Positions 15,005 to 55,005 are shown, counted from the first letter of the stretch. The stretch is DNA of 64,000 bases from an uncultured Fibrobacteraceae bacterium (GCA_964343835.1 CAYFKR010000014.1:32406-96405); one strand, 5' to 3'. Made by a program: numbers and translations. Notes: generated by a model from the sequence alone, not told the origin.

Positions 15005-15025
15005 GCCGGGGCAGAGGAGGAAACC

Positions 15026-23447: not shown

Positions 23448-24535
<1,088 letters not shown>

Positions 24536-24539
<4 letters not shown>

Positions 24540-24790
24540 GACTCCTTCTCCCGGTCCGCCTCGATGTGGGCATTCAGCTCCGTCAACGTCTCCAACGTCG
24601 CCCGCGCCTCATCCTCGTCCAGCTGCTGCAGCGCGAACCCCGCATGCACGATCACCCAGTCGCCCACACCGACGTCAGGCACATAGGTCAGGCAGGCCGT
24701 GTTCTCCACGCCGGCGTAGTCGATGCGGCCCATCGTCAGGCCGTTCTCCTGGTAGGTCTCGAGGATGCGGCCGGGGACGGCGAGGCACAT
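24536..24790 (-). CDS. hypC: hydrogenase maturation chaperone HypC
   Basis: 84 aa starting MCLAVPGRI, the hallmark HypC/HybG N-terminus. Confidence 0.85.
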
Positions 24791-24792
24791 GG

Positions 24793-27066: not shown

Positions 27067-27067
27067 C

Positions 27068-27835
27068 TCAGCTCCCGAGGGCGGCCCGACGCGAGCGCAG
27101 CCACCCGTACCAGGCGTCCATGCCCTCACCCGTGGTGGCGGACACGCGCAGGAACTCCAGGTTCGGGTTCACCGCGCGGGCGTGGGCCTCGCAGGCGTCC
27201 ACGTCGAAGTCCACGTAGGGCAGCAGGTCGATCTTGTTGATGATGCACAGGTCCGACGCCGCGAACATGGTGGGGTACTTCTGCGGCTTGTCGGCCCCCT
27301 CGGTGACGCTGATGATCACGACCTTCGCCGCCTCGCCCAGGTCGAACAGGGCGGGACAGACCAGGTTGCCCACGTTCTCGATCATGAGCACGCCGCCGTC
27401 CTTCGGGTCGAGCTGGTGGACGGCGCGGTGGATCATCTCCGCGTCCAGGTGGCAGCCGTGCCCCGTGTTCACCTGCAGCACCGGCGCGCCGGTGGCCGCG
27501 ATGCGGTCGGCGTCGTTCAGGGTCTGCTGGTCGCCCTCGATCACCGTCACCGGCGGGTCGCCGTCCAGGTCGCGGATGGTACGTTCCAGCAACGAGGTCT
27601 TGCCGCTCCCCGGCGACGACACCAGGTTCAGCGCCAGCAGACCGAGCTTCTCGAACCAGCCGCGGTTACGGACGGCCGTGGCGTCATTTCGGGCCAGCAG
27701 GTCCTGCTCCACCTCGATGGTGCGCGAGCCGTGATCGTGCTCATGGTGATGATGGTGATCGTGCTCGTGCCCCTCGCCGGGCCGACGGAACGTCACCGCA
27801 TCGGCGGGCTGGCTGCATCCACAGGTGTCGCACAT
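27068..27835 (-). CDS. hypB: hydrogenase nickel incorporation GTPase HypB
   Basis: MCDTCGC N-terminus, His-rich stretch [14 protein letters not shown]-loop [11 protein letters not shown], and the NKIDLL G4 motif. Confidence 0.85.
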
Positions 27836-27846
27836 GACCGTCTCCT

Positions 27847-28185
27847 TCAGTCCACGTTCAGGGAGCGCAACCGTAGCTCCCGCCCCCGCACGATCTCCAA
27901 CGCCCCGGAGCAATCAGGGCAGAGCGCCACGAAGAAATCCACCTCGGCCTCGGTGCCGCAGGCGCCGCAGTGCCCGAGTCCGGCGATGCGTTCGACGACC
28001 AGTTCGGCCTCCGCGCACACCGTACCCTTCCGTGCCGATTCGTAACAGAACTCCAGCGCGTCGATCTCCACTCCGGCGAGCGTTCCGATCTCCACATCAA
28101 GCCGGTTGATCCGCTCAGAACCCGCCGCATTCGCCTGTTTCTCGGCGATTTCAATGAGGCTCACGGCAATCGACATCTCGTGCAT
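27847..28185 (-). CDS. hypA: hydrogenase nickel insertion protein HypA
   Basis: [15 protein letters not shown]-terminus and two CxxC pairs (CGACG...CPDCS). AGGAGG RBS. Confidence 0.85.
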
Positions 28186-37710: not shown

Positions 37711-38507
37711 TCGAGGATCTCCACCGGGTCGCCCACGCGCAGCACGCCCGCCTGCCGGGTCACCAGGTTCATGCCGAAGTCCACGGTGCCGTCGTCGTTG
37801 CGCCGGTAGTCGGCGAGGGTGCGCAGCGGCTCGGGCCCCATGCGCTCGCCCGTGGCCTGGTCCGTCGTGGTCACGACGCATCTCGCGCACGGCTTCACGT
37901 TCTCGAACTCCAGCTCGCCGATGCGCAGCCGGCGCCAGCCGGCCTCGGCCCAGGGCTCAGCGCCTGCCACCACCAGGTTGGGGCGGAAACGGTCCATGGG
38001 GACCGGTGCGTCCAAGCGGCCGTTCAGCTCCGCCAGCGAATCCTCGGTACAGAGCAGGAACGGGTAGCCGTCGGCGAACGACACGTCCACGTCCGGCGCC
38101 AGGGCTGCGGGACGCGGAGCGTCGTCGGGGATGCGGGCCAGCCAGACCGGACGCTGGAGCCAGTCGGAGAGCCAGGCGTTGGCCTCGGCGGCGGCGAGCT
38201 GGGCGTCCACCACGTCGTTCCAGATGCCGGTGGGCATACGGGCGGCGTCGGTCGGGGGCGGGGCGACGGCGACGGGTTCGCGGCCGTCGGCGTCCAGGAG
38301 GATGGAGCCGTCGTCGTGCGCCTCCACGCCGAGGGTCGCCAGGGCCGGCACGTTGCGCTGGGTGAGGAAGTCGCCGTCCTGGGACACGACCATCCACAGC
38401 CGGTCGAAGCGGAGGCCGCGGCTGTGGGCCGCGGCCTCCGTATGCGTCGTCCCGCGGGCGGACTTCACGGGGTAGGAATGCAGCCCCGTCAGGCGGAGAC
38501 CGCTCAC
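37707..38507 (-). CDS. MOSC domain protein (MOSC_N beta-barrel plus MOSC)
   Basis: LTGLHSYPVKSARG (MOSC_N) and a C-terminal MOSC region with KPCARCVVTT (conserved Cys). GTG start overlaps the upstream stop (GTGA). Confidence 0.65.
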   Translation of the reverse strand: MSGLRLTGLHSYPVKSARGTTHTEAAAHSRGLRFDRLWMVVSQDGDFLTQRNVPALATLGVEAHDDGSILLDADGREPVAVAPPPTDAARMPTGIWNDVVDAQLAAAEANAWLSDWLQRPVWLARIPDDAPRPAALAPDVDVSFADGYPFLLCTEDSLAELNGRLDAPVPMDRFRPNLVVAGAEPWAEAGWRRLRIGELEFENVKPCARCVVTTTDQATGERMGPEPLRTLADYRRNDDGTVDFGMNLVTRQAGVLRVGDPVEILD

Positions 38508-40297
38508 TTGGCGCCCTTCGGGACGATGGACACCGGAGCATCCACCTCCATTTCCAGCAACGCCTGGGAGAGGGTCTTGCCCTGGGGGTCGAGCATGAGC
38601 GACACGGTGCCGCCGCCGCCCAGGGACCGCTCCATCAGGAAGTTCAGGGCGTGCAGGTTGTGCAGCTCGTGCCGCGTGACCCGGCCCTTCACGATCCCCT
38701 TGAAGAAGCGCTTCACGACGGCGGGCGTGAGGGTCTCCCGGAGCCAGTCGTAGGCCTCCGGCGATCGCGCCACCACACCGACGTTGCAGGTGTCGCCCTT
38801 GTCGCCGGAACGGGCGTGGGCCAGGGCGCGCAGCTTCACGCGGCGGGTGCGCTTGGGCCATGTCTTCACGCGGGGCCGCTTCTCGTCCGGTGCCGAACGG
38901 TGGGAGCGGGGTGGCGCCTCGTCCTCGAACTCCACGGTACGCGTCGTCTCCGACCCGCCGGGCCGGATGACCACCACGCGCGACGACACGCTGCTGCGCC
39001 GGATCAGGGCCGGCCAGTAGGCCACCACCTTAGACGGCTTGGGCCGCCCGCCGGTCACGGCCATGCCGCTCGGGCCGGACAGGATGAGGGTCGGCAGCAG
39101 CACGCCGAACTCCTGGACCTTGGCCTTGTCGTGGTCGCGCACGCCGAGGCGCAGCAGCACCTCGGGGGTCTCGTAGCGGTCCAGCGTCTCGGGCCAGATG
39201 GAGCCGCTGCCCACCACCGAGTCGTGGCGTTCCTCGTAACGGTGGCCCAGACGCTTCCAGAAGATGCGCGCCGCGGCTTCGGCCTTCTCGTCGGCCTCGG
39301 GTCCGCAGATCAGCACGGTGCCACCGGCTTTCCAGCCGTCGTCGTAGGCCATCGACACCTTGAACATGGGCGGGCGGGGCTCGCCATTCACGCCGCTCAC
39401 GCGCACCCGGTCGCGGCCGGCCTGCTCCAGACGGATGGTGTCGAAGCGGGCCACACCGTCGGGGGAGATGTACTCCTTCGGGTCGCCCATCTCGTAGACG
39501 AGCTGTTCCTTGACGGTCTCCACGCTCACCAGGCCGCCGGTGCCCTTGTGCTTGGTCACCTCGAAGACGCCGTCGTCACCCATCTCGATGATGGGGTAGC
39601 CGATGGTCTCGAGCTTGGGGACCGTGCGCCAGTCGGTGAAGTTGCCGCCGGTGGCCTGGGTGCCGCACTCGATGATGTGGCCTGCGACCACGCCGGCCGC
39701 CAGGCGGTCCCAGTCGTCGTCGCTCCAGCCGAACTCGTGGATCATGGGGGCCAGGGTGATGCCGGTGTCGGTCACGCGGCCGGTCACGATCACGTGGCAG
39801 CCGTCGTCCAGGGCCTTCACCACGGGCTCGGCGCCCAGGTAGACGTTGGCGGCGGTCACCTTGTCGCGGACCGGGGCCAGGGGCTCGCCGGTCTCCATGT
39901 TGTCCATGGGGTCGCCGCCGGAGCCGAGGGCGTCCAGACGGTCGAGGATGTCGTCGCCGTCCACGACGCCCACCTTCACCCGCAGTCCCAGCTCGGCCGC
40001 CAACTCCTGGATCTTCCGGCCCAGACCGAGGGGGTTGATGCCGCCGGCGTTGGTGATCACACGCACGCCGCGGTCCATCATCAGGGGCAGGCACTCGCGC
40101 ATCTGGAGGAGGAAGTCGCCGGCGTAGCCCATCTCGGGGTTCCGGGCCCGCTGGCCCTGGAGGATGGACATGGTGATTTCGGCCAGGTAGTCCAGGGTGA
40201 CGTAGTCGAGGGGGCCGCCCTCGATCTGGCGGCGCAGGGCGCCGGGGTCGTCGCCCCAGTAGCCGCCGGCGTTGCCGATGCGGATGGTGCGTCTCAT
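38504..40297 (-). CDS. acyclic terpene utilization AtuA-family protein (DUF1446 plus C-terminal DUF4387-like extension)
   Basis: MRRTIRIGNAGGYWGDDP...LDYVTLDYLAE is the DUF1446/AtuA N-terminal signature. 597 aa. Confidence 0.6.
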   Translation of the reverse strand: MRRTIRIGNAGGYWGDDPGALRRQIEGGPLDYVTLDYLAEITMSILQGQRARNPEMGYAGDFLLQMRECLPLMMDRGVRVITNAGGINPLGLGRKIQELAAELGLRVKVGVVDGDDILDRLDALGSGGDPMDNMETGEPLAPVRDKVTAANVYLGAEPVVKALDDGCHVIVTGRVTDTGITLAPMIHEFGWSDDDWDRLAAGVVAGHIIECGTQATGGNFTDWRTVPKLETIGYPIIEMGDDGVFEVTKHKGTGGLVSVETVKEQLVYEMGDPKEYISPDGVARFDTIRLEQAGRDRVRVSGVNGEPRPPMFKVSMAYDDGWKAGGTVLICGPEADEKAEAAARIFWKRLGHRYEERHDSVVGSGSIWPETLDRYETPEVLLRLGVRDHDKAKVQEFGVLLPTLILSGPSGMAVTGGRPKPSKVVAYWPALIRRSSVSSRVVVIRPGGSETTRTVEFEDEAPPRSHRSAPDEKRPRVKTWPKRTRRVKLRALAHARSGDKGDTCNVGVVARSPEAYDWLRETLTPAVVKRFFKGIVKGRVTRHELHNLHALNFLMERSLGGGGTVSLMLDPQGKTLSQALLEMEVDAPVSIVPKGAK

Positions 40298-40371: not shown

Positions 40372-41582
40372 AGTTGTGCCACCGAAAATGTCCCTCGCTT
40401 ATGGAGTAGCCCCCATCGGATCCCGCCTTACCCCTCAGTATGCATATGAAAGACAGTGCCGCTGATTCACTGTGAAGCCAACTGTCAAAACCGCTCGATC
40501 GTAGTACTTAGCCCATACATCCGGTACATCGACCCGAGACCTGAACAGCCGTTCCCGCAACACATCCATCACCGTCCACATCCTATCAACCACACCCTTG
40601 AGCATCCCCGACGACACCGGGGGGCCTTTCTCCCATCTTCGTTTGACCAGGTTCTTCCAAACCATCAGAATCGACAACCGCTCCGCCGAACTCTGCCTCC
40701 GCTTCACCCAGGCGATCGTTTCGCGCTTGTGAGCCGCCGTGCTGTGACGGATCAGTAGATCGGCCAGGTTTACCTCCCACAACGGGTTGTGCTTGTCCCG
40801 GTGATCCTTGCTCGAGGTCACCTGGTGCCGGAATGTGCATCCTAGCTGGGATATCGCTCGCCGATAGGCGGGATGCTCGTCGCTCCGGCCGGTGATTACG
40901 TAACGGCCCTTTGAGACATATTGAAGCAACGACAGGATGCCATTCTGGACGGCTTTAGGGTCGGGGCGACCATGTAGTTGCTCCAATTCTGCTCTTCGCT
41001 TCTTCTGCTGATCGGTCATCCGGCCCTTTCGTCGCAGCGGGCTATCGGTGTGGAAGAGCAGGAACCCATTGTCGGACTCGACGGCGATGTTGTGGTGGAA
41101 CGGATAGTACTGACTGAGCTCGAAGGTCTCGAAACCATCGAAGACGATCTCAGCCGGAGAGGGCACACCTTCCAACAGATTCATATGCAATAGCATGCAG
41201 TGTCGGCCCAGGCGTGATACGTGGCGGTCGACCGTCGAGGGGCTGCACTTCAGGGCACGGGCGATCTGACGGTTGGCCATGCAACCGACGGTCATCATGA
41301 AGATCTTGGCGTCGAGGTCGGGGCGCTTTTGCCAGTAGGTGGTCGAAAAGGTCTGGGAACTGAAGGTTCTGCGGCAGTGGAGGCATGTGAACCGTTGGAT
41401 ACGCCTGGGGGCGATGCGTCGGGTATAAAAGCCCTTCCGTTTGAAGGGCCAGTGATCGTGGTGACCCTTGTGGTACTTGCATTTAGGGTTGGGGCAGTGG
41501 GGCGGTTGCCAGCCGTGCTTGTGAGTGTCCATGGCCGCGTGATTGCCGGTTTCGAGCCAGGGACACTTTCAGAGGCACAACT
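40372..41582. mobile_element. IS1-family insertion sequence (single-ORF type), 1211 bp
   Basis: 28-bp imperfect terminal inverted repeats (24/28 identical). 9-bp flanking direct repeat CAAGCTGTT / CAAGGTGTT. GC markedly lower than the surroundings. Carries one transposase ORF. Confidence 0.7.
40435..41532 (-). CDS. IS1-family transposase (InsA-like zinc finger plus HTH fused to a catalytic domain)
   Basis: N-terminus HCPNPKC...RKGFYTRR...FTCLHCRRTF...KIFMMTVGCMANRQIARALKCSPSTVDRHV is co-linear with IS1 InsA (CPSC...RNGK...CSHCRKTW...[29 protein letters not shown]). 365 aa. Confidence 0.7.
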   Translation of the reverse strand: MDTHKHGWQPPHCPNPKCKYHKGHHDHWPFKRKGFYTRRIAPRRIQRFTCLHCRRTFSSQTFSTTYWQKRPDLDAKIFMMTVGCMANRQIARALKCSPSTVDRHVSRLGRHCMLLHMNLLEGVPSPAEIVFDGFETFELSQYYPFHHNIAVESDNGFLLFHTDSPLRRKGRMTDQQKKRRAELEQLHGRPDPKAVQNGILSLLQYVSKGRYVITGRSDEHPAYRRAISQLGCTFRHQVTSSKDHRDKHNPLWEVNLADLLIRHSTAAHKRETIAWVKRRQSSAERLSILMVWKNLVKRRWEKGPPVSSGMLKGVVDRMWTVMDVLRERLFRSRVDVPDVWAKYYDRAVLTVGFTVNQRHCLSYAY

Positions 41583-42914: not shown

Positions 42915-43703
42915 ATGATGCGCTTCATGCTCGTGCTGACGACCCTGGCCCTGCTGGCCGGCTGCAACTCCACCGACCAGGACGCCGTGGCCGACGCCAA
43001 CCGCGCCGGCTCCATGCCCGCCGGTCATTCCGCCAACGACGGCCATGATCACGGCGCCGCTCCCGCCGGCTCCGGCGGCATCGTCGGCGAGGTGCTCGAG
43101 ACCATGAACTCGGGCGGCTACACCTACGTGCTGGTCAAGACCGCCGACGGCGACGTCTGGGCCGCCGGTCCCGAGACCACGATCGCCGTGGGCGACCAGG
43201 TGGACCTGGGACAGGGCATGCTCATGCCCAACTTCCGCAGCGAAACCCTGGACCGCACCTTCGAGGCCATCTACTTCGTGGGCGCCGTCCAGACCGCCGA
43301 CGCCGCCGCGGCCGAGGCCGTGCAGGGCGCCATGAACCAGGCCCACGCCGGCGTGCCCTCCACCGAGACCAGCGTCACCGCGGGTGATGTGAACAAGGCC
43401 GACGGCGGCCAGACCATTGCCGAGCTCCACGGCATGGGCGCGTCGGCCGGCGGCACCGCCGTGCTGGTGCGCGGCAAGGTCGTGAAGGTGAACATGAACA
43501 TCATGGGCACCAACTGGTACCACATCCAGGACGGCAGCGCCGAGGGCGGCCAGGGCGACCTGACGGTCACCTCCGAGGCCCGCCTGAACATGGGCGACAC
43601 CGTGCTGGTGCGCGGCACCGCCACCGTCGACAAGGACTTCGGCGCCGGCTACCGCTACGACCTGATCGTCGAGAACGCCCAGGTGACCGTCGAATCGATG
43701 TAG
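42915..43703 (+). CDS. lipoprotein with two tandem OB-fold-like (BOF/YgiW-like) repeats
   Basis: Lipobox LLAGCN. Two repeats, GEVLETMNSGGYTYVLVKTADGDVW and GKVVKVNMNIMGTNWYHIQDG. Confidence 0.4.
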   Translation: MMRFMLVLTTLALLAGCNSTDQDAVADANRAGSMPAGHSANDGHDHGAAPAGSGGIVGEVLETMNSGGYTYVLVKTADGDVWAAGPETTIAVGDQVDLGQGMLMPNFRSETLDRTFEAIYFVGAVQTADAAAAEAVQGAMNQAHAGVPSTETSVTAGDVNKADGGQTIAELHGMGASAGGTAVLVRGKVVKVNMNIMGTNWYHIQDGSAEGGQGDLTVTSEARLNMGDTVLVRGTATVDKDFGAGYRYDLIVENAQVTVESM

Positions 43704-43731
43704 GTTCAACCTGCATACCCCGGAGGCGTCC

Positions 43732-44943
43732 GTGTCCCAGCGCACCATCCTGCACGTGGACATGGACGCCTTCTTTGCGTCCGTCGAGGTCCTCGACGAC
43801 CCCTCCCTCCGCGGGAAACCCGTGATCGTGGGCGGCACCCCCGAGGGTCGCGGCGTGGTGGCCGCCGCCAGCTACGAGGCCCGGGCCTTCGGCGTGCGCA
43901 GCGCCATGAGCGCCGCCCGTGCCGTGAAGCTCTGCCCGGACGGAGTGTTCCTGCGGGGGCGGATGTCCCGCTATGCCGAGATCTCCTCGCTGATCTTCGA
44001 CGTCTTTCACGACATCACGCCCCTGGTGGAGCCCCTGTCGGTGGACGAGGCCTTCCTGGACGTGGGCGGTTGCCGTCGGCTGTTCGGCGACGGCCCGGCC
44101 ATCGGTCGCATGATCAAGGAACGCATCCGCGACGAGGTGGGGCTGGTGGCGTCGGTGGGGGTGGCCCGGAACAAGTTCCTGGCCAAGCTGGCCAGCGACC
44201 TCGAGAAGCCCGACGGCTTCACCGTGGTGCCCGACGACGTGCAGGCCTTCCTGGATCCGCTGCCCGTGGGCAGGATCTGGGGCGTGGGGCCGCGGTCGCA
44301 ACAGGTGCTGGAGGAACTGGGGGTGCGGGCCATCGGCGAGCTCCGGCGCGTCGACCCCGTGCGGCTCGAAACCCGGATCGGTCCGGTCCATGCCGCCCAC
44401 ATCTCCGCCCTGGCTAGGGGCGAGGACGACCGACCGGTGGTCACCGACCACGAAGCGAAATCCATCGGCCACGAGATCACCTTCGCCGAGGATGTGGGCG
44501 ACCGCGACGCCCTGGTGGACGTGTTGGACCAGATGGCCCACAAGGTGGCCCGCCGCCTGCGTCGAGCCGAGGCCCGGGCCCGCACCGTCCAGCTCAAGGC
44601 CCGCTACCCCGATTTCACCACCCACACCCGCGCCCAGACGCTTCCCGAGCCCACCGACTCCACCCGCACCCTCCGCGACACCGCTCGGGCCCTGCTCGAC
44701 GGCTCCCTGGAGCGCCGCGGCCGCCCCCTGCGCCTGATCGGCATGAGCGCTCAGAACCTGGTGCGGGGCGGCGTCGCCCAGGGAGAACTCTTCGCGGATC
44801 CGGACGCCGAGCGCGACCGTACCCTGGACGGCCTGATGGACGAGGCCGCCGACAAGTGGGGCCGGGCCGCCCTCACCCGCGGGCTGCAGCGCATGGATCC
44901 CGGTTCCCGCGAGGGCCGCGACGACGGCGGCGATCAGGACTGA
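43732..44943 (+). CDS. dinB: DNA polymerase IV (Y-family)
   Basis: ILHVDMDAFFASVE...KPVIVGG...SIDEAFLDV are canonical Y-family motifs. Confidence 0.85.
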   Translation: MSQRTILHVDMDAFFASVEVLDDPSLRGKPVIVGGTPEGRGVVAAASYEARAFGVRSAMSAARAVKLCPDGVFLRGRMSRYAEISSLIFDVFHDITPLVEPLSVDEAFLDVGGCRRLFGDGPAIGRMIKERIRDEVGLVASVGVARNKFLAKLASDLEKPDGFTVVPDDVQAFLDPLPVGRIWGVGPRSQQVLEELGVRAIGELRRVDPVRLETRIGPVHAAHISALARGEDDRPVVTDHEAKSIGHEITFAEDVGDRDALVDVLDQMAHKVARRLRRAEARARTVQLKARYPDFTTHTRAQTLPEPTDSTRTLRDTARALLDGSLERRGRPLRLIGMSAQNLVRGGVAQGELFADPDAERDRTLDGLMDEAADKWGRAALTRGLQRMDPGSREGRDDGGDQD

Positions 44944-45013
44944 TCCGATCCCCGCTTGCGGGCCGCGCCCTGCTCTGCGATCCTGCTCCCACACCCCGAA
45001 CCGAAGGACGACC

Positions 45014-45508
45014 ATGCGCAAGACCATCGTCGGCGTCATGGGGGGCTGCTCCGCCAGCGCGGAGGCCCTCGAGGGCGCATACCACATCGGCCGGCTCATC
45101 GCGGAGAACGGCTGGACCCTGCTCAACGGCGGCCGTCCCGAGGGCATCATGGACGCCTCCGCCCGCGGCGCGAAGGAGGCCGGCGGCACCGTCATCGGCA
45201 TCCTCTTCGACGACGACCGCGACAACGCCAGCCCCTACCTGGACTACGTGCTGCCCACGGGCCTGGGCTCGGGCCGCAACATCGTCAACGTGCTGAGCAG
45301 CGACGTGGTGGTGGCCTGCGAGGGCAACGGCGGCACCATGAGCGAGATCGCCATGGCCCTGCGCTTCGAGCGCCGGGTCATCGTGCTGGGGTTCGATCCC
45401 GGCGCGGCGTTCCTGGACCGCTGCGGCAAGGGGGAGTGGAGCCTGGCGGCCACCCCCGAAGAGGCCGCGGAACAGATCAAGGCCCACCTGGGCGTGCCGA
45501 CAACCTGA
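45014..45508 (+). CDS. TIGR00725-family protein (SLOG/LOG-like Rossmann fold)
   Basis: 164 aa. IVGVMGG...GWTLLNGGRPEGIMDASARGAKEAGGTVIGIL...ACEGNGGTMSEI is the LOG/DprA-like Rossmann signature. Confidence 0.55.
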   Translation: MRKTIVGVMGGCSASAEALEGAYHIGRLIAENGWTLLNGGRPEGIMDASARGAKEAGGTVIGILFDDDRDNASPYLDYVLPTGLGSGRNIVNVLSSDVVVACEGNGGTMSEIAMALRFERRVIVLGFDPGAAFLDRCGKGEWSLAATPEEAAEQIKAHLGVPTT

Positions 45509-45511
45509 GCC

Positions 45512-47533
45512 ATGTGTGGAATCTGCGGAGCCATCGCCCTGAAGGGCACCCTGGAAGCGCCGGCCGGATCGGTCGAGCGCATGATCGGCGTGCTGTCCCA
45601 TCGCGGTCCCGACGAGTACGGCTCGTGGGGCGATGAGCGCACGCTGCTGGGCCATGCCCGCCTGAGCATCATCGACCTGGGCTCCGGCCAGCAACCCATG
45701 GGCACCGCCGACGGCCGCGTGTGGATCACCTTCAACGGCGAGATCTTCAACTACGTCGAATTGCGCGAGGACCTCCGAGCCAAGGGGCACGCGTTCCGGA
45801 CGTCCAGCGACACCGAGGTGATCCTGGCCGCCTGGCGCGAGTGGGGCGCCGCCTGCGTGGAGCGGTTCAACGGCCAGTTCGCCTTCGCGATCGTGGACCG
45901 CGACGCCCGCCGCGTGTTCATGGCCCGCGACCGGTTCGGCATCCGGCCCCTGTACCACACCCGCTGCGGCGACGTGCTGCTGTTCGCGTCGGAGATCAAG
46001 TCCCTGGCGGCCTGGCCCGGCTGCCGGGTGGAGCTGGACCCGGCGTCGCTGGGCGAGGTCTTCACCACCTGGGTGAACGTGCCGCCCCGCACCCCGTTCA
46101 GGGACGTGTGGCAGCTTCCTGCCGGCCACCTGCTGGAGCTGGACCTGGACGGCGACGGCCGCATGCCCGAGCCCCGGCGCTGGTGGCGACCGGACTTCCT
46201 GCCTGCCGCCGAGGACCACCGCCACGTCGAGACCGACGAGCGCGACCGCATGGCCCACGAGGTGCGCGAGGCCCTGGCCGACGCCGCCGAGATCCGGCTG
46301 CGCGCCGATGTCCCGGTGGGGGCGTATCTGAGCGGCGGCCTCGACTCGTCGGCCACTGCGGCCCTCGTGCGTGAACGCACGGGAAACCGCCTGAAGACCT
46401 TCAGCGTCGGCTTCACCGACGCCGCCTACGACGAGACCTCCTGGCAGTCCATGATGGCCGACCACCTGGGCACCGACCACGAGAGCATCCGCGTGGGCGA
46501 CGCCGAGATCGCCGGCGGGTTCGCCCGCGTGGTCTGGCACGCCGAGTCGCCGTTGCTGCGCACCGCGCCCGCGCCCTTGTACGCCCTGTCGGGGCTGGTG
46601 CGGGAGCAGGACTTCAAGGTGGTGCTCACGGGCGAGGGCGCCGACGAGGTGTTCGGCGGCTACAACATCCTGCGCGAGGCCAAGGTGCGGGCGTTCTGGG
46701 CGCGGGAGCCGGAGTCGTCGCGACGGCCGAAGCTCCTTACACGCCTGTATCCGTACCTGCAGCAGTCGCCGCCGGAGTTCATGATCCGCTTCTACGGGGC
46801 GGGCCTGGACGGGGCGCTGACCGATCCCTGCTTCTCGCATCGGCCGCGCTGGAACAACACGTCGCGCATCATGACCTTCCTGCGTCCCGAGATCGCAGAG
46901 GGGGCCGCCTCCGCCGCCGCCGCGGGCGAGGAGCGGTACCGCGCCTCCCTGCCGCCCGAATTCCGGGACTGGGGCCCCGTGGCACGCGCCCAGTACCTGG
47001 AGATGACCCTGTTCATGGCCGGCTACCTGCTGTCGAGCCAGGGCGACCGCATGCTGATGGGCCACACCGTGGAGGGGCGCTTCCCGTTCCTGGACCACAA
47101 CGTTGCGGAACTGGCCGGCCGGATTCCGGCCTCGGTGAAGCTGGCGTCGTTGGAGGAAAAGGCTTTATTGAAGCGGTCGGTGGCCGATCTGCTCCCCGTG
47201 GAGATCACGCGGCGGCCCAAGCAGCCGTACCGCGCGCCGGATTCGGCCAGCTTCTTCACGGGCTACGGAGCGGACCTGGTGGCCGAGGCCACCGACCCCG
47301 ACGAGCTCGTGAGGGCCGGGCTGTTCGCTCCGGAGCGCGTGACCGCCCTGCTGCGCAAGTGGCAGGCGGGACGACTGACGAGCGTCCGCGACAACATGGC
47401 CTTCACGGGGGTTCTCAGCGCCCAGATCCTGTCCCGCCAGTTCGGGCCGGACCTGGAGCGGAGGATCCGCAACGCGACCCTTCCCGCCGGCGCCGTCGTG
47501 AGGCGCGGCGGCGACGACCAAGACAACGACTGA
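45512..47533 (+). CDS. asparagine synthase-family glutamine amidotransferase (AsnB-like, long form)
   Basis: MCGICG Ntn nucleophile, RGPDE, SGGLDSS PP-loop. 673 aa. It starts 4 nt after the upstream stop. Confidence 0.8.
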   Translation: MCGICGAIALKGTLEAPAGSVERMIGVLSHRGPDEYGSWGDERTLLGHARLSIIDLGSGQQPMGTADGRVWITFNGEIFNYVELREDLRAKGHAFRTSSDTEVILAAWREWGAACVERFNGQFAFAIVDRDARRVFMARDRFGIRPLYHTRCGDVLLFASEIKSLAAWPGCRVELDPASLGEVFTTWVNVPPRTPFRDVWQLPAGHLLELDLDGDGRMPEPRRWWRPDFLPAAEDHRHVETDERDRMAHEVREALADAAEIRLRADVPVGAYLSGGLDSSATAALVRERTGNRLKTFSVGFTDAAYDETSWQSMMADHLGTDHESIRVGDAEIAGGFARVVWHAESPLLRTAPAPLYALSGLVREQDFKVVLTGEGADEVFGGYNILREAKVRAFWAREPESSRRPKLLTRLYPYLQQSPPEFMIRFYGAGLDGALTDPCFSHRPRWNNTSRIMTFLRPEIAEGAASAAAAGEERYRASLPPEFRDWGPVARAQYLEMTLFMAGYLLSSQGDRMLMGHTVEGRFPFLDHNVAELAGRIPASVKLASLEEKALLKRSVADLLPVEITRRPKQPYRAPDSASFFTGYGADLVAEATDPDELVRAGLFAPERVTALLRKWQAGRLTSVRDNMAFTGVLSAQILSRQFGPDLERRIRNATLPAGAVVRRGGDDQDND

Positions 47534-47549
47534 CGGGGGAGACCTGACG

Positions 47550-47807
47550 ATGGAGCTGAGGGAGCAGATCCGAGGATACCTGATCGAGAACTTCCTGTTC
47601 GGCGACGCCGCGCCGCTGACCGACGACGCCATGAGCCTGCTGGACAACGGCATCATGGACTCGGTGGGCGTGATGGAGCTGGTGGCGTTCCTGGAGGGCG
47701 ACCTGGGCCTGGGCATCGACGACACCGAGCTGGTGCCGGAGAACCTGGACTCCGTGGACAACCTCGTGAACTTCGTGACCCGCAAGCGGGAGGCGAGCGT
47801 GGCGTGA
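47550..47807 (+). CDS. acyl carrier protein
   Basis: 85 aa, acidic, with LDNGIMDSVGVMELV (phosphopantetheine-attachment Ser in a DSL/DSV context). Confidence 0.75.
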   Translation: MELREQIRGYLIENFLFGDAAPLTDDAMSLLDNGIMDSVGVMELVAFLEGDLGLGIDDTELVPENLDSVDNLVNFVTRKREASVA

Positions 47808-49339
47808 CCACCGTTCACGGCATGCTGAGCGCCACCGCCGCCGCGCGGCCCGGCGCACCGGCGCTGACCCACGGCGACCGCACGTGGACCTATGAGGAAC
47901 TGGACCGGGCCGCCGATCGGACGGCCCGGTTCCTTGTTTCCCGGGGCGTGATGCCCGGCGACCGCGTGGCGCTGCTCATGGACAACGGCTTCGACTACGC
48001 CGCGTCGTTCTTCGGCGCGTTGCGTGCCGGCGCCTGCGCCGTGGCCCTGAATCACGCCAACCAGGCCCGCAGCCACGCATCGCTCATCAACGACAGCGGT
48101 GCGGTGGCCTTGCTTGCCCGAGCCGCGCAGGCCCGGCAACTACCCGAGGTGGTGGCCGGGTGCGGCGAGCTGCTGACGGTGGCCATCGATCGCGCGAACC
48201 CGGACTGGAAGCTCCCCGGCATCGATCTGGTGGTGGGCGACGACGCCCTGGACGGCCCCGACCTGCCCCTGCCCGACATCGGCGCCGACGACCTCGCCCT
48301 GATCCTCTACACCAGCGGATCCACGGGCCGCCCCCGCGGCGTGACCCTCACCCACGGCAATCTCTGCGCCAACACGGACCAGATCCTGGCCTACCTGGAC
48401 CTGGGCCCCGACGACAGCGTGGGCTGCGTGCTGCCCTTCCACTACTCCTTCGGCAACTCCCTGCTGCTGACCCACGTGAAGTGCGGCGGTCGCGTGGTGG
48501 TGGACAACCGCTTCGCGTTCCCGCAGAAGGTACTCGACACCCTCGAGGCCGAGCGCTGCGCCGGATTCAGCGGCGTGCCCTCCCACTTCGCGATCCTGGC
48601 CTCGCGCACCGACTTCCTGGAGCGCGAGTGGCCCCACCTGCGCTACCTGACCCAGGCCGGCGGCGCCATGGCCCCGGCCCTGCAGCAGCGTCTCCGCGAG
48701 GCCCTGCCCGACCGCATCGACGTGGTGGTGATGTACGGCCAGACCGAGGCGTCGGCGCGGCTCTCCTGGCTGCCGCCCGACCGGCTCCACGAGAAGTACG
48801 GGTCCATCGGCGTGGGCATCCCCGGCGTGTCGCTGCGGGTGCTGCGGGGCGACGGCAGCGAGTGCGACGTGGGCGAGACGGGCGAGCTGGTGGCGTCCGG
48901 CCCCAACATCATGCAAGGCTACTGGAACGACCCCGACGAGACCGCCACCGTGCTCTTCGACGACGGCCTCCACACCGGCGACCTCGCCACCCGCGACGCC
49001 GACGGCTTCCTGTTCATCGTGGACCGCGTGAAGAACATGATCAAGGCGGGGGCCAACCGCGTGAGCCCCAAGGAGATCGAGGAAGCCATCCTCGAGCTCG
49101 ACGCCGTGGCCGCCGCCTGCGTCCTCGGCGTGCCGGACGATCTGCTGGGGGAGGCAATCGTGGCCTGCGTGGTGCCGTCGGGGGAAGACCTCGACGTGCA
49201 GGCGCTGCTGCGTCACTGCCAGAAGACCCTCGCCCAGTTCAAGATCCCCCAGCGCGTGGAGGTGCTCGAGGAGCTGCCTCTGAGTGCGGCGGGGAAGACG
49301 GATCGGGGGGCGTTGGTGGCGATGCTCGAAAATCCCTGA
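47804..49339 (+). CDS. AMP-dependent synthetase/ligase (fatty-acyl-AMP / acyl-ACP ligase type)
   Basis: LYTSGSTGRPRGV (A3 core), YGQTE, GDLA...DGF, and the C-terminal SAAGKTDR Lys. 4-nt overlap with the ACP gene. Confidence 0.8.
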   Translation: MTTVHGMLSATAAARPGAPALTHGDRTWTYEELDRAADRTARFLVSRGVMPGDRVALLMDNGFDYAASFFGALRAGACAVALNHANQARSHASLINDSGAVALLARAAQARQLPEVVAGCGELLTVAIDRANPDWKLPGIDLVVGDDALDGPDLPLPDIGADDLALILYTSGSTGRPRGVTLTHGNLCANTDQILAYLDLGPDDSVGCVLPFHYSFGNSLLLTHVKCGGRVVVDNRFAFPQKVLDTLEAERCAGFSGVPSHFAILASRTDFLEREWPHLRYLTQAGGAMAPALQQRLREALPDRIDVVVMYGQTEASARLSWLPPDRLHEKYGSIGVGIPGVSLRVLRGDGSECDVGETGELVASGPNIMQGYWNDPDETATVLFDDGLHTGDLATRDADGFLFIVDRVKNMIKAGANRVSPKEIEEAILELDAVAAACVLGVPDDLLGEAIVACVVPSGEDLDVQALLRHCQKTLAQFKIPQRVEVLEELPLSAAGKTDRGALVAMLENP

Positions 49340-49499
49340 GCCTACAAGTAACTCAACATCGCTTACCATGTCAGGGTGTCGTGAACACGCCGTCAACTCC
49401 CGCCGGAGATGGCTCGGCCCCAGGCTCGACAGTGCGGTATGATTCGGCGCGTCCGCATCGACGCAGCCGGACCGCATCCATCATCCGGAAGGTCCCGAC

Positions 49500-50126
49500 A
49501 TGAAGACCGCAGTACTTCTCCTCGTCCTCGCAACATCCGTCGCCGCATCCGCCCAGATCCCCGACTTCCCCTGGGTCGAGATCGTCGACGGTCCCGCCGA
49601 GCCCGCCATGGTGTTCGCCGGCCCGGACGGATCGGTGGGCGACCTTTCCGAGGCCCGGTCCAGGCTTTCCGGGGCGACCATCGACGCCACGATCACCATT
49701 CAGATCCTCGACGGCGCCGGGAATCCCATCGCCAACTATCCGTTCGAGGACATCTGGCTCCAGAGCACCCAGGGGGGGATGGTGCCGTGCAATGGCGGCA
49801 CGGTGTCCGACGTGGACACGGACGGCGACGGCATCACGACCTTCTCCGGCCCCCTGCTGGTGGGCGGCGGCATGGATGCGTCGGCGGGCGAGGTGCTGGA
49901 GGTCTGCCTGAACGGCATGACGTGGCCCCAGTCGGTCGTGGACGTGGTGGTGCTCACCGCGGACCTGAACGGCGACCTCATGGTGAACCTGACCGACACC
50001 ATCGACTTCGCGGCCCTGTACCTGTCCGGGGGATATGCCCCTGCCATCGACTTCCTCTGGGACGGCGAAATCAACCTCTCCGACCTGGTCATCTTCGCAG
50101 GAGCCGTGAACACCGCCTGTCCCTGA
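49500..50126 (+). CDS. secreted protein with a C-terminal dockerin-like (type I, two Ca-binding repeats) module
   Basis: Signal peptide. DLNGDLMVNLTDTIDFAAL and DFLWDGEINLSDLVIFAG fit the dockerin repeat D.N.D..VN..D...L. Confidence 0.5.
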   Translation: MKTAVLLLVLATSVAASAQIPDFPWVEIVDGPAEPAMVFAGPDGSVGDLSEARSRLSGATIDATITIQILDGAGNPIANYPFEDIWLQSTQGGMVPCNGGTVSDVDTDGDGITTFSGPLLVGGGMDASAGEVLEVCLNGMTWPQSVVDVVVLTADLNGDLMVNLTDTIDFAALYLSGGYAPAIDFLWDGEINLSDLVIFAGAVNTACP

Positions 50127-50129
50127 TCC

Positions 50130-52327
50130 CTAGGGCCTCCAGGCGTACCCCACCTTCAGGAACCACGTCCGGTCGTGGACCGTCAGCTCGGTGACCTCGT
50201 CGCCGAGCCGGCGGTCCGTCGTGCCCAGGAACAGCACCGTGCGCGGGTTGGCGCGGAAGCTGTAGAGGAACTGGGAGAAGAGGGTGCGGTCCTCGGCCAG
50301 CACTGGGAAGGGGAAGCGGTCCGTGTCCAGGGCCACGTCCTCCAGCTGGACGGTCCAGCGCAAGTGGCTGCGGCTGGACAGGGCGAACTGGAAGCGGGCG
50401 TCGGTCTGGTCGACGGTGAGCATGCGGCCGCCGCCGGCGTCCAGGGCATAGCGTACGTGGCTGGCGATCACCGACACGCGGGGCGTCGGGGTCCAGGTCA
50501 CGCCGGGGCCGGCGCCCCAGGAGGTGGCGGATCGGGCGTTGTAGTAGTCGATGTCGTCGCCGCCCCAGGCCATGACCCAGGCCCACAGGGCGTCGTGGGG
50601 TCGGAAGCCGGCCTTGCCGCGGATGATGGTCTGATCGAAGTCCGTGCCGGCGAAGCGCTCGCGGAGCAGGTCCGTCGCCAACCACAGTCGCGACTGCATG
50701 GGCCCCATCACGTTCAGCTCGGCGCGCAGTTCGCGGTCGGTGAGGGTGCCGTCGATGTCGCGGACCTCGGTGCCGTGGACACCGGCCCCGATGAAGTGCA
50801 CACCCTTGCCGGCCTCGCGCCACCAGCTCCGCCACACGCCCAGGTCGCGCTGCTCCATGTCCACGCGGGGGAGGAACCCCAGGTCGGCACGGAAGTCGCG
50901 GCCGGTGCGTTGCCAGCCGGCGAGCCAGCTCCAGAGGCGGCCGTCGCGGCTGTAGATCATGGAGACGGAGGTGTCGTCCAGGTCGGCGGCGCCGCCCAGC
51001 ACGGCGGCGGTGCCGGCGTCCAGACTCGTCGAGGCCACCAGCGCCTGCACGTCCAGCTCGTGGCCGCCGCCGGGGCGCACCACGGCGTCCAGGCCGCCCA
51101 CGATGTTGCGGTAGCCGTCGGCGTCGCGGGCGGTGAGCAGGGCTCCCACCGTCGAGCCCTCGCCCACGTCGCGGCGCCAGCGGGCGGCGGCGGACGTGTT
51201 CTCGCGCTCGAGGGTCTCCATGCGGGAGCGGCCACCTTCGTAGATCAGCATGTTGGTCCAGCGGTCGCGGGCGGCGAAGGCGCCGAAGGCGTTGGCCCCC
51301 TCCTTGCCGCTCACCTTGGCCACCCAGTCCGGGTCCACGACCATGCGGGTGTAGACGGCGTCCTGGTAGGTCTCGAAGAGGTCGGCGCCCTCCAGGAAGA
51401 CGGGGCGCTTCTCCTCGTATTCCAGGGCCCAGCGGGTGTTCACGTCGAGCTGGAGCTCGTCGGCCTCCACCTGGGAGAAGTCGGGGTTGAGGGCGGCGTC
51501 GATGCTGGTGTTGGGCGTGGGACCCCAGCGGGCCGAGAGGCCCAGATCCCAGACCGGGCGGCCGGAATGCATGTCGCCGTCGGGGAAGGGGGCGCGCTCG
51601 TCGGTGCGACTGGCCGTGTAGGTGGGGGTGAGCTCCAGGTTGCGGCCGGCGCTGATGCCGGCGAAGCCGCGCAGGTCGGTGGCCATGCAGAGCTCGCAGT
51701 CCTCGTCCGGGTCGATGGGCGAGGAGCACGTGAGGCGGGCCACGGAGCGGGGATGATGGCGGAAGCCCAGGAATCCCCACACGGCGGGCTCGTCGGAACC
51801 TTCGTAGCGCAGCGACGAAAAGGGCACGGCGATCTCCACGCAGTATCCGGTCGAGTCCACGGCGGCGGCGGAGGACCACACGGCGTCCCAGGCCGCGTCG
51901 TCGGGTTCGGCGGCGGTCTCGCTGCGGGTCAGGTCCATCTGCACGCCGCCGGCGCTGACCAGGAACTGGAAGCCGCGGCGGCGGTCGGCGAAGGGGTCCA
52001 CCACTACGCCGACCCAGTCGTCGTCGAACCCGTCGTCGCGCTCGGCGAGGTTGGCGCGGATGCGGTCGGGCTCCGGGTCGAGGGCGCGGAAGGCCACGTA
52101 GAGGGCGCCGTTGTCGTGAGTGACCAGGCAGGTGGTGGCCACCGCGGCGGGGGTGCGGTCGCCGGGGTCGATCTCCCAGGAGAGGTCGAGGGGGACGGCC
52201 ACGGACCAGCAGGGGTCGTCCAGCACGCCGTCCAGGATGGGCGGGGCGTCGCATGGCACGACGTCGAGGGCGGCGAGGGCGGACAGGGGGATCAGCAGGA
52301 CGATCAGGGCTTGGGCGATGCGCAGCA
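50130..52327 (-). CDS. DUF5916-type protein with an N-terminal CBM9-like/DOMON domain
   Basis: ILDGVLDDPCW...DNGALYVAFRALDPEP...DWVGVVVDP resembles the carbohydrate-binding family 9-like domain. A large beta-rich C-terminal region follows. GTG start 5 nt after GGAAGGAG. Confidence 0.5.
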
Positions 52328-53206: not shown

Positions 53207-53362
53207 CGGGGAGCCTTCCGGGTTCGGAGCGTCGCCCGATCGCGACGCTTCCGGGGGACGTTAGCCGCGGGACACCGGAAAGTCAACGCGGCCGGGGGGA
53301 GTGTGGACAGCGGGGCCGTCGGACCGTATGGTGGGTCCTCGAACCGAGGAGGAACCGGCTCC

Positions 53363-54271
53363 ATGAAGATCGTCCTGACCGGAGGCTCCGGCCTGATCGG
53401 CCGGCATCTGTGCGCCGAACTCGTCGCCCGAGGCGACGAGGTGATCTGCCTGTCCCGCCGGGCCGAACGGGCCCGCGTCAAGCTGCCCCCCGGCGTCGCG
53501 GTGATCGAGGCCGATACCGCCGTGGCTGGCCCCTGGCAGGATTCCATCGCCGACTGCGACGCCGTGGTGAACCTGGCCGGCGAGTCCCTCTCGTCGGGGC
53601 GCTGGACGTCCGGCCGCAAGCGCGCGTTCCGCCGCTCCCGCCTCGAAACGACCCGCCGCGTGGCCGAGGCCGTGCGCCGCGGCGACCGCTGCCGCACCTT
53701 CATCAGCGCCTCGGCCGTGGGCATCTACGGCGACGGCGGCCGCGAGCCCCAGTACGAGGAGCGCGAGGCCGCCGGCGACTTCCTGGGTCGCCTGGCCCAC
53801 GAGTGGGAGAGCTGCGCCCTGGACGCGTCGGACTCGGCACGGGTGGTGCTGACCCGCTTCGGCGTGATCCTCGCCCCAGACGGCGGCGCCCTGCGCGCCA
53901 TGCTGCCCGCCTTCCGCTGGGGCCTGGGCGGGCCGCTGGGCAACGGCAAGCAGTACCTGCCGTGGATCCACATCGACGACGTGATGCGGATCCTGCTCTA
54001 CATCCTCGACACCGACGACATCTCCGGCCCCGTCAACGTGGTCGCCCCCGACCCCCCGACCCAGCGCGAGTTCGCCAGGGCCCTGGGCGCCGCCCTCGGC
54101 CGCCCCGCCTCGCTGCCCGCCCCGGCCTGGGCCCTGCGTCTGCTGCTGGGCGAGATGGCCGACATGGTGCTCACCAGCTATCGCACCGTGCCCAAGGCCC
54201 TGCGCGCCCGGAGCTTCGCCTTCGAACACAAGGATCTCGACGTGGCCCTGAAGGGGTTGTTGGATCGCTGA
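53363..54271 (+). CDS. TIGR01777-family NAD-dependent epimerase/dehydratase (YfcH-like, with C-terminal DUF1731)
   Basis: MKIVLTGGSGLIGRHL Rossmann N-terminus, YLPWIHIDD, and a C-terminal DUF1731-like tail. GAGGAGG RBS. Confidence 0.75.
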   Translation: MKIVLTGGSGLIGRHLCAELVARGDEVICLSRRAERARVKLPPGVAVIEADTAVAGPWQDSIADCDAVVNLAGESLSSGRWTSGRKRAFRRSRLETTRRVAEAVRRGDRCRTFISASAVGIYGDGGREPQYEEREAAGDFLGRLAHEWESCALDASDSARVVLTRFGVILAPDGGALRAMLPAFRWGLGGPLGNGKQYLPWIHIDDVMRILLYILDTDDISGPVNVVAPDPPTQREFARALGAALGRPASLPAPAWALRLLLGEMADMVLTSYRTVPKALRARSFAFEHKDLDVALKGLLDR

Positions 54272-54356
54272 GGGCTCGTTCGTATGGTGTGGACGGGCCC
54301 CGGTGTCGTATGCTGACGGGGATCCGAACCACCATCCCGACACCACGGAGACATCC

Positions 54357-55005
54357 ATGTTCCTGCGCCGCATCGCCCCGCTGTTCCTGCTGCTGCTGAC
54401 CGCCCTGCCCGCCGCCGCCGACTGGTGGCCGCTGGAGTACGGGTGGACCTGGATCTACTACAGCGACGAGTTCGAGTCCAACCTGGAGCTCGACGTGATG
54501 GAGACGCCGGTGATGGTACGCGGCGTGGCGACCACCGAGCTGCGCTACCGCCGCAGCAACGCCACAGACAGCACGGAGTACAGCCGCTTCGTCACCGAGA
54601 CTCCGGAGGGCGACGTGTACCTGCACGGCCGCCAGGACGTCCAGGATCCTCGACGTCCCCCTGGAGATGGACAAGATCTGGTCCACGCGCTATGCCGAAT
54701 ACGAGGGATTGCTGGAAGGCGGGCCGCTGGTGCAGCGCTGGATCGAGACGTACACGGTCAACGAGGAGTACTTCCACTCCGACTGGACCGGTCCGACCCT
54801 CCACTGCCTCGGCCTGACCCAGGAGATCAGCATCCAGACGGCGGCGGGCGTCGCCGAAACGGGCTCGACCCGCAACGCCAACCTCTTCTACAACGACGGC
54901 GTGGGGCTGGTGATCAGCAATACGTTCCGGATGACGGGGTACAACTGGCAGGTGTCGGCGGAGTCGATGACCTGGTCGGATCTCAAGGTCCGGTTCAGCG
55001 ACTAG
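54357..55005 (+). pseudogene. secreted hypothetical protein, apparent +1 frameshift near 54640..54670 (frame 0 N-terminus with signal peptide, frame +1 C-terminus)
   Basis: The N-terminus MFLRRIAPLFLLLLTALPAAADWWP has GGAG 7 nt upstream. The C-terminal 112 aa are in the +1 frame and end 3 nt from the convergent gene stop. Both frames stay open through the junction, so the exact shift position cannot be determined. Confidence 0.35.

Follow-up and report, generated by a model that had tools for sequence, protein, structure and literature searches.

What is made by four tightly packed genes in which an asparagine synthase-like amidotransferase stands beside an acyl carrier protein (ACP) and an adenylate-forming ligase, and do all four belong to one pathway? 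The question is raised by positions 45014-49339 of a 64,000-nucleotide (nt) stretch of DNA from an uncultured Fibrobacteraceae bacterium (GCA_964343835.1, CAYFKR010000014.1:32406-96405), here called the window. All four genes lie on the plus strand. The first (45014-45508), identified by open reading frame (ORF) calling and family scans, encodes a SLOG/TIGR00725 protein of 164 amino acids (aa). It is followed by an AsnB-like glutamine-dependent amidotransferase of 673 aa with GATase_7 and Asn_synthase domains (45512-47533), a stand-alone ACP of 85 aa with a marginal PP-binding match and a DS motif at Ser38 (47550-47807), and a 511-aa ligase of the ANL superfamily with AMP-binding and AMP-binding_C domains (47804-49339). 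The last three genes are very probably a homologue of the smb20650-52 cassette of Sinorhizobium meliloti, in which a dedicated ACP is loaded by its own ligase, and the SLOG gene appears to stand outside it.

The AsnB-ACP-ligase cassette and its relatives

An earlier note made from the sequence alone had described the four genes as lying within 17 nt of each other or overlapping, and direct reading of the junctions bears this out. The TGA stop of the SLOG gene is separated by 3 nt from the AsnB ATG, the ACP ATG comes after a 16-nt spacer in which GGGGGAG occurs, and the GTG start of the ligase overlaps the TGA stop of the ACP gene in the 4-nt sequence GTGA. The three larger genes have a guanine plus cytosine (GC) content of 0.93-0.96 at third codon positions, as is usual for genes in a window of about 70 % GC. 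A promoter and terminator scan of positions 43500-50400 gave no signal exceeding shuffled expectation, so that the operon boundaries are inferred from spacing alone.

The distribution of the cassette was analyzed by retrieving the AsnB clade with AsnB peptides alone, using the clade alignment in a scan of one genome per species. This recovered 80 loci with AsnB at 45-72 % identity, from sources including Rhizobium, Mesorhizobium, Nocardioides, Sorangium, Nitrospira, Anaerolineae, Planctomycetota, Acidobacteriota, Zixibacteria and a cyanobacterium. The cassette itself occurs in rhizobia, Azospirillum, Nocardioides, Streptomyces, Sorangium, Nitrospira, Chloroflexota, Planctomycetota, Acidobacteriota and several candidate phyla. 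The window proteins were then mapped onto the loci, taken with 10-kb flanks, and all their ORFs were clustered; the counts given here refer to those 62 loci in which each flank reaches at least 4 kb, 7 from the window lineage and 55 from outside it.

Within 3 kb of AsnB, the ACP was found in 52 of these 62 loci, the ligase in 48 and both in 44, the latter spanning more than 15 phyla, a grouping of the three genes far beyond chance. The conserved module that the earlier note had suspected is thus genuine. Only two gene orders occur, AsnB-ACP-ligase and ACP-ligase-AsnB, and in two further loci a profile search picked up weak ACP-like ORFs immediately upstream of AsnB. Database relatives of the AsnB-like protein, all of about 640-706 aa and at 57-98 % identity, form more than 120 clusters, and the genomic contexts of three of these hold the same trio. 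In the related locus L005 the order is SLOG-aminotransferase-FKBP(-)-trio-GSHPx, and L091 has the same order without the trio. Because these two loci share synteny and differ by the trio only, the AsnB, ACP and ligase genes are one insertion/deletion block, gained or lost as a single unit.

The surroundings of the trio differ between the window lineage and the rest. The commonest extra partner, a NadE-like PP-loop protein (NF002048/PRK00876, 526 bits), is present in 44 of the 55 loci outside the lineage and in none of the 7 inside it; a search for a NadE-like homologue anywhere in the window also found none. Genes typical of exopolysaccharide (EPS) loci (Wzz, Wza, tyrosine kinase, sugar transferase, GT1, XrtA-type deacetylase) accompany 27 of the 55 outside loci, again against 0 of 7 inside, and the XrtA-type polysaccharide deacetylase TIGR03006 occurs in some distant homologous loci. 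In Azospirillum the order is deacetylase-ACP-ligase-AsnB-NadE-GNAT.

A tblastn search of plasmids placed the cassette on the megaplasmid pSymB of S. meliloti 1021 (L087) and on 118 other replicons. The pSymB genes run in the order AsnB, ACP (SMb20651), ligase (SMb20650) and NadE-like, and their products are 49 % (AsnB, over 646 aa), 49 % (ACP) and 36 % (ligase) identical to those of the window. This S. meliloti cassette stands alone beside minCDE and sugar-catabolism genes. The first description of the S. meliloti ACP, by Ramos-Vega et al. in 2009 (Microbiology 155:257), reportedly named asnB and nadE1 as members of the operon, and the DNA agrees. The pSymB ligase was confirmed as SMb20650 by checking our own translation against the alignment that PMC7232532 gives in its supplement. 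The gene smb20650 is cotranscribed with the ACP gene smb20651, and SMb20650 expressed in Escherichia coli making holo-SMb20651 gives rise to acylated SMb20651 (PMC7232532). In fadD mutants, smb20650 restores neither growth on oleate nor the removal of free fatty acids (PMC7232532). Acyl-SMb20651 is formed and fadD is not complemented, which indicates that SMb20650 loads the ACP rather than coenzyme A (CoA). The function of SMb20651 still needs investigation (PMC5686131). The smb20650/smb20651 pair is the experimental precedent that the earlier note had missed.

Both cassettes share the order AsnB-ACP-ligase, with the ligase directly after the ACP, and both lie outside any EPS locus. A neighbour-joining tree places the window lineage on a single branch, sister to all other cassette AsnBs, and the S. 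meliloti AsnB falls inside that wider group. There are also differences. The fourth, NadE-like gene of S. meliloti is missing from the window, and the ligase of S. meliloti is of a type B (PLAFDYG) whereas that of the window, 36 % identical to it, is of a type A (PFHYSFG). The S. meliloti operon is carried by a megaplasmid, whereas the window belongs to the chromosome of an uncultured high-GC lineage, where the trio lies beside dinB and a homologue of molybdenum cofactor (Moco) carriers. Judged by its sequence, the window cassette reads as a derived, reduced three-gene variant that combines the cassette ACP and AsnB with a non-orthologous ligase and no NadE-like gene.

Predicted chemistry of the cassette

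The AsnB-like protein has the nucleophile Cys2, the glutaminase residues R50, N75, G76, E77 and D100, the PP-loop SGGLDSS at residues 274-280, and E375 and D378. The lineage alignment shows no variation at Cys2, the glutaminase residues or the PP-loop, and the conservation of all these features suggests that the enzyme should hydrolyse glutamine and adenylate a carboxylate. The region of the E. coli AsnB residues that bind aspartate is not reliably covered by the alignment. After the broad TIGR01536, the best specific NCBIfam model is TIGR03108 (residues 1-621), with 416.9 bits against a cutoff of 816.9. The score against TIGR03104, the model of the N-acetylglutaminylglutamine (NAGGN) amidotransferase AsnO, is 374.4 bits and does not pass the cutoff of 570.1; AsnO members have an Ngg partner, and no Ngg-type neighbour lies beside the window gene. 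The closest solved structure is that of the hydroxyamidotransferase TsnB9 (7YLZ), against which the single sequence scores 225 bits and the family profile 297 bits. This trichostatin enzyme is likewise AsnB-like and acts on a lipophilic carboxylic acid, yet it transfers hydroxylamine to give a hydroxamate within a polyketide pathway, and the alignment is confined to the N-terminal ~390 residues and a portion of the C-terminal domain.

The phosphopantetheine site of the ACP is Ser38 (MDSVG), and the serine is kept in 72 of 72 ACPs of the family. A search over 1.84 billion representatives returned 633 cluster representatives at E <= 1e-10, almost all of them stand-alone. Among the best 150 of these relatives the sole multidomain protein with a recognisable partner is P0242 (363 aa), a fusion of an SGNH domain (PF19040, 27.8 bits) with an ACP of this family at the C-terminus. 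A link between P0242 and the recurrent neighbour family c19 was considered and dropped, the similarity not being significant (E = 0.86). A relation to ornithine lipids, hinted at by the ACP_for_OlsHI model, was likewise abandoned: the match is weak (48 bits against a cutoff of 130), and the paper on OlsH reports that this enzyme requires no ACP, which leaves no ornithine lipid link for the window ACP.

The ligase keeps the P-loop YTSGSTGRPRG and a C-terminal GK with the catalytic lysine. The earlier note had classed it as a fatty-acyl-AMP-ligase-type enzyme, a label that has to be taken as putative. Its best-scoring models are acyl-CoA ligase families, none of which reaches its cutoff; the best of all is TIGR03098, with 380.9 bits against 592.35. 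Its best matches in PDB are acyl-CoA ligases and adenylation (A) domains of nonribosomal peptide synthetases, and its length of 511 aa is that of enzymes without the insertion specific to fatty acyl-AMP ligases. Cassette ligases split into two types, and TIGR03098 is the best-scoring model for each. Type A, which bears the motif PF[HY]Y..[FY]G.SLL.TH, is found in the window (as PFHYSFGNSLLLTH), in Actinobacteria and in some others; type B, with the motif PLSFDYGLYQLLM, occurs in rhizobia, SMb20650 included, and in Chloroflexota. Either type can directly follow the ACP, and some loci carry both. Two Nitrospira genomes each have one ORF of 1042-1043 aa (L038 12215-15343, L065 4210-7341) that encodes a type B ligase fused to a type A ligase and is flanked by the ACP and NadE-like genes of the cassette; this fusion suggests that the two types perform different steps of one pathway.

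Two further ideas about the ligases were given up. The residue after the Phe of the A4 motif is His in type A and Asp in type B, a position that is uncertain without a GrsA reference alignment; for this reason, and because the type B enzyme of S. meliloti is said (Ramos-Vega et al. 2009) to have given a fatty-acylated ACP, activation of an amino acid was dropped. A comparison of ligase type with AsnB phylogeny, as a test of coupling, is confounded by taxonomy.

Resemblance to the amidotransferase, ACP and AMP-ligase sets of exosortase-type EPS loci had been proposed for these genes, and it holds in part. TIGR03108 and TIGR03098, the models built for the XrtA/PEP-CTERM set, are indeed the best specific models for the amidotransferase and the ligase, and about half of the distant loci carry EPS genes. 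The window proteins nevertheless score too far below both cutoffs to be members of the XrtA families, and their locus has no EPS context. TIGR03098 members adjoin a pyridoxal phosphate (PLP)-dependent decarboxylase (TIGR03099); the window ligase has the ACP upstream and a secreted protein of 208 aa downstream. No match to a PLP-decarboxylase family was obtained among the scanned window ORFs (PEP-CTERM proteins were not searched for), and, as the earlier note had remarked, there is no obvious exosortase, none being found when the candidate ORFs across the 64 kb were scanned with Pfam. The text of Haft 2006 does not mention the cassette genes (PMC1569441), and a literature search combining the cassette components gave no matching paper.

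A tentative reading, to which we give slightly less than even weight, is that the trio encodes a single pathway: the ligase would charge the ACP with an acid, a carboxylate belonging to that pathway would be amidated by the AsnB-like enzyme, and the outcome would be an envelope substituent that bears an amide. The ligase would adenylate a carboxylic acid and thioesterify it to the phosphopantetheine arm on Ser38 of the ACP with no CoA ester, as extrapolated from the S. meliloti pair. The AsnB-like enzyme, hydrolysing glutamine at Cys2 and using ATP at the PP-loop, would then convert a free carboxylate into a carboxamide, either on the carrier-bound acyl group or on the molecule that receives it. 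Finally, an acyltransferase encoded elsewhere may move the amide-bearing acyl group to an envelope polysaccharide or lipid. The window version would be a reduced one, without the second amidating enzyme (NadE-like) and set in a stable housekeeping neighbourhood.

Candidates for this last step in relatives are the GNAT-like, hexapeptide-repeat or SGNH proteins encoded beside the cassette. Among them is the c29 family (~370 aa), hypothetical in rhizobia and homologous to an Azospirillum 'GNAT family N-acetyltransferase' (hhalign probability 97 %), which we regard as a candidate acyl-ACP-dependent transferase. It recurs beside the cassette in L092 (12090-13196), L093 (13855-14970, minus strand), L054, L056, L057, L059, L067, L070, L083 and L033, and a search of the window for a homologue found none. 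A hexapeptide-repeat transferase also recurs next to the cassette in relatives.

The single-pathway reading draws on the fact that the three genes are linked across phyla and are gained and lost as a block, on the likeness to TsnB9 with its lipophilic acid and on the recurrence of candidate off-loading enzymes; the EPS genes in 27 of the 55 distant loci are also counted in its favour. Several observations weigh against it. A subgroup from Zixibacteria, Calditrichota and Ignavibacteria has the AsnB with or without the ligase and no detectable ACP, no AsnB-ACP or ligase-ACP fusion is present among the best 150 ACP representatives, and an off-loading acyltransferase was not found in the 64-kb window. 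The ligase studied experimentally is of type B and that of the window of type A, at 36 % identity; the two types, fused in one ORF in Nitrospira, probably act at different steps. Finally, the closest family after TIGR01536 is TIGR03108, whose characterised members amidate sugar uronic acids, which favours the following alternative.

According to this second explanation, which we consider possible but rather unlikely, the genes serve two independent decorations of one glycan: the AsnB-like enzyme would make a uronamide, in the manner of WbpS, WbqG and PGN_1234, and the ligase and ACP would supply an acyl or aminoacyl group to an N-acyltransferase acting on an amino sugar, resembling the 2-N-seryl-3-N-acetylglucuronamide linking sugar of the Wbp/Vim pathway. 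The three named enzymes are TIGR03108 amidotransferases that form sugar uronamides (PMC7468200), and like the window protein they are long, glutamine-dependent members of the AsnB family; the carboxylate that they amidate belongs to an envelope component and not to aspartate, as is presumed for the window protein. That TIGR03108 is the best specific model (residues 1-621) speaks for this explanation, as do the polysaccharide genes in the distant loci. Also in its favour are the Azospirillum cassette, which lies between a polysaccharide deacetylase and a GNAT-like gene in parallel to VimE, VimA and WbpS, and the place of the window lineage in a group with features like those of type IX secretion systems (T9SS; Por_Secre_tail, FlgD_ig). 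However, the score is half the TIGR03108 cutoff, and the AsnB clade of the cassette goes together with an ACP and a ligase, a linkage that WbpS-type genes do not show. Furthermore, the cassette stands alone in S. meliloti and in 7 of 7 lineage loci with no sugar-modifying or glycosyltransferase gene nearby. The polysaccharide genes of the window are limited to a Wzz/flippase pair 35 kb upstream and a GT2 gene 11 kb downstream.

Of the chemical versions considered, one is distinctly unlikely: an AsnB-family enzyme would act on a carrier-delivered acyl compound (a carrier-bound dicarboxylate, or an N-acyl-aspartate or N-acyl-glutamate), the trio would make an amide-bearing lipid or aminolipid, for example of the N-acyl-asparagine type, and the NadE-like partner present elsewhere would amidate a second carboxylate. 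As in the earlier note, an amidated or acylated envelope modifier is still the best guess for the product.

The SLOG gene and the surrounding genes

The SLOG protein passes TIGR00725 (110.7 bits against a cutoff of 106.9), matches PF18306 (3.7e-44) and belongs to SLOG cluster 4. It is 45 % identical over its full length to the Moco carrier of Rippkaea orientalis, RoMCP (PDB 6Y01, E = 5e-43), and also similar to the Chlamydomonas carrier CrMCP (2IZ5, E = 4e-28). Of the RoMCP anion-site residues Arg42, Ser67, Arg89 and Thr109, three are kept as R41, R88 and T108, and Ser67 is replaced by Asp66. Besides this substitution, the window protein differs from the two carriers in that its organism is no oxygenic phototroph. 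A MOSC-domain gene (37716-38507, minus strand) lies 6.5 kb upstream of the SLOG gene and directly downstream of AtuA (38504-40297, minus strand); the pair is kept in L001 and L089, the latter with two MOSC copies. MOSC enzymes use Moco in its non-dinucleotide form, which is the form bound by RoMCP, and the proximity of such a gene fits a Moco carrier. The similarity to RoMCP and CrMCP, the three kept anion-site residues and the nearby MOSC gene lead us to read the SLOG gene as encoding a Moco-carrier-type protein with predicted Moco binding, which is probably co-transcribed with the trio and is not a member of the module.

The earlier note had counted this gene as part of a four-gene functional operon, in a combination that it did not recognise. 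A true four-gene pathway, in which the SLOG protein would bind or process a nucleotide-linked intermediate for the trio, is very improbable and is largely refuted by the distribution of the genes. SLOG proteins bind nucleotide-like ligands, and the SLOG gene, 3 nt from AsnB in the window, is found in 7 of 7 lineage loci; in 5 of these 7, all with full flanks, the gap does not exceed 50 nt, and L089 is arranged likewise. It is, however, found in 0 of the 55 loci outside the lineage, which carry the trio without it. Within the lineage, other genes on either strand intervene between SLOG and the trio in L005, L009, L011 and L012; in L005 and L012 the SLOG gene overlaps an aminotransferase gene, and an opposite-strand FKBP gene intervenes before AsnB. 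The SLOG gene also overlaps the aminotransferase gene in L091, where the trio is absent, and follows DUF4230 in L090 with no trio nearby. The occurrence of SLOG without the trio and of the trio without SLOG indicates that their adjacency is lineage-specific synteny, and the resemblance to a biochemically proven Moco carrier and the MOSC gene kept in relatives point the same way. The 3-nt spacing most likely arose by loss of intervening genes.

The other immediate neighbours are the gene for DNA polymerase IV (dinB) upstream, at 43732-44943, and a gene for a secreted protein of 208 aa downstream (49500-50126, plus strand) with the signal peptide MKTAVLLLVLATSVAASAQ. The latter had been called dockerin-bearing. 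Two dockerin-like repeats, DLNGDLMVNLTDTIDF and DFLWDGEINLSDLVIF, are visible by eye at its C-terminus in addition to the signal peptide, but a Pfam scan gave no match at E <= 0.01. The protein is kept in the closest relative, L001, only (48 %). Beyond it, on the opposite strand, is a DUF5916/CBM9 protein, whose CBM9-like character was confirmed by family scan.

Further observations concern the wider window and its relatives. An ORF of 365 aa at 40435-41532 (minus strand) has weak HTH_38, GerE and IS1/ISL3-transposase-like matches and lies in a patch with a GC content of 0.62 against ~0.70. The equivalent position is occupied in L001 and L089 by a Disulph_isomer gene that the window lacks, and the ORF is probably a mobile-element insertion or replacement. 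The ORF at 53261-54373 (minus strand) is a shadow ORF without a family match; the real gene, at about 53369-54271 (plus strand), encodes an NAD-dependent epimerase/DUF1731 protein and is syntenic with L001, L003 and L089. Compared to L001, the window lacks the VWA and aconitase genes between DUF5916 and enoyl-CoA hydratase. At 13982-17924 and 23448-27913 a NiFe-hydrogenase large-subunit-like gene lies beside genes for Fe-S and FAD/NAD subunits, and hypD, hypF and hypB are present; on account of these genes the organism probably uses hydrogen. Secreted-type proteins with FlgD_ig are encoded at 2810-5023 and 21552-22388, the domain being C-terminal in a BNR-repeat protein and mid-protein in the second, and related contigs carry Por_Secre_tail and Peptidase_C25 proteins, which are hints of a type IX-like secretion system in the window lineage. 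Metagenome-assembled genomes of this lineage are variously labelled Fibrobacteraceae, Krumholzibacteriia and Gemmatimonas.

Annotation and meaning of the cassette

That the AsnB-like protein is an ordinary asparagine synthetase with functionally unlinked ACP and ligase neighbours is hardly credible: it passes the equivalog model TIGR01536 (497.6 bits against a cutoff of 267.1) and is publicly annotated as asparagine synthase, but this broad model also accepts the EPS-locus and pSymB homologues, the E. coli-type model NF006949 is matched in three separate stretches at 310.9 bits against a cutoff of 499 and is not passed, the ACP and ligase are linked to the protein across more than 15 phyla in a trio gained and lost as a unit, and the S. 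meliloti copy is carried by a megaplasmid in an operon with the ACP. No related locus shows the standard fatty acid or lipid A context that, together with an ordinary AsnB, the earlier note had named as the competing explanation.

The kind of cassette is a known one, on record since 2009 and covered in part by the NCBIfam models for XrtA loci, and the window holds a three-gene variant of it with a ligase of another subfamily. The annotations 'asparagine synthase', 'acyl carrier protein', 'AMP-binding protein' and 'NAD synthase' mislabel a widespread pathway whose product has been unknown since that year. With the SLOG gene assigned to the Moco carrier family, a false lead is removed. The window presents a minimal unit, without NadE or EPS genes and gained or lost as a block, which implies that the essential chemistry must lie in AsnB, ACP and ligase. 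The S. meliloti homologue is genetically tractable and, together with this minimal version, makes the old question directly testable. If the AsnB-family enzyme does act on a carrier-delivered acyl compound, this would be a new type of substrate for the family, and an amide-bearing lipid would be a conserved envelope component of an uncultured lineage of the FCB (Fibrobacterota, Chlorobiota and Bacteroidota) type.

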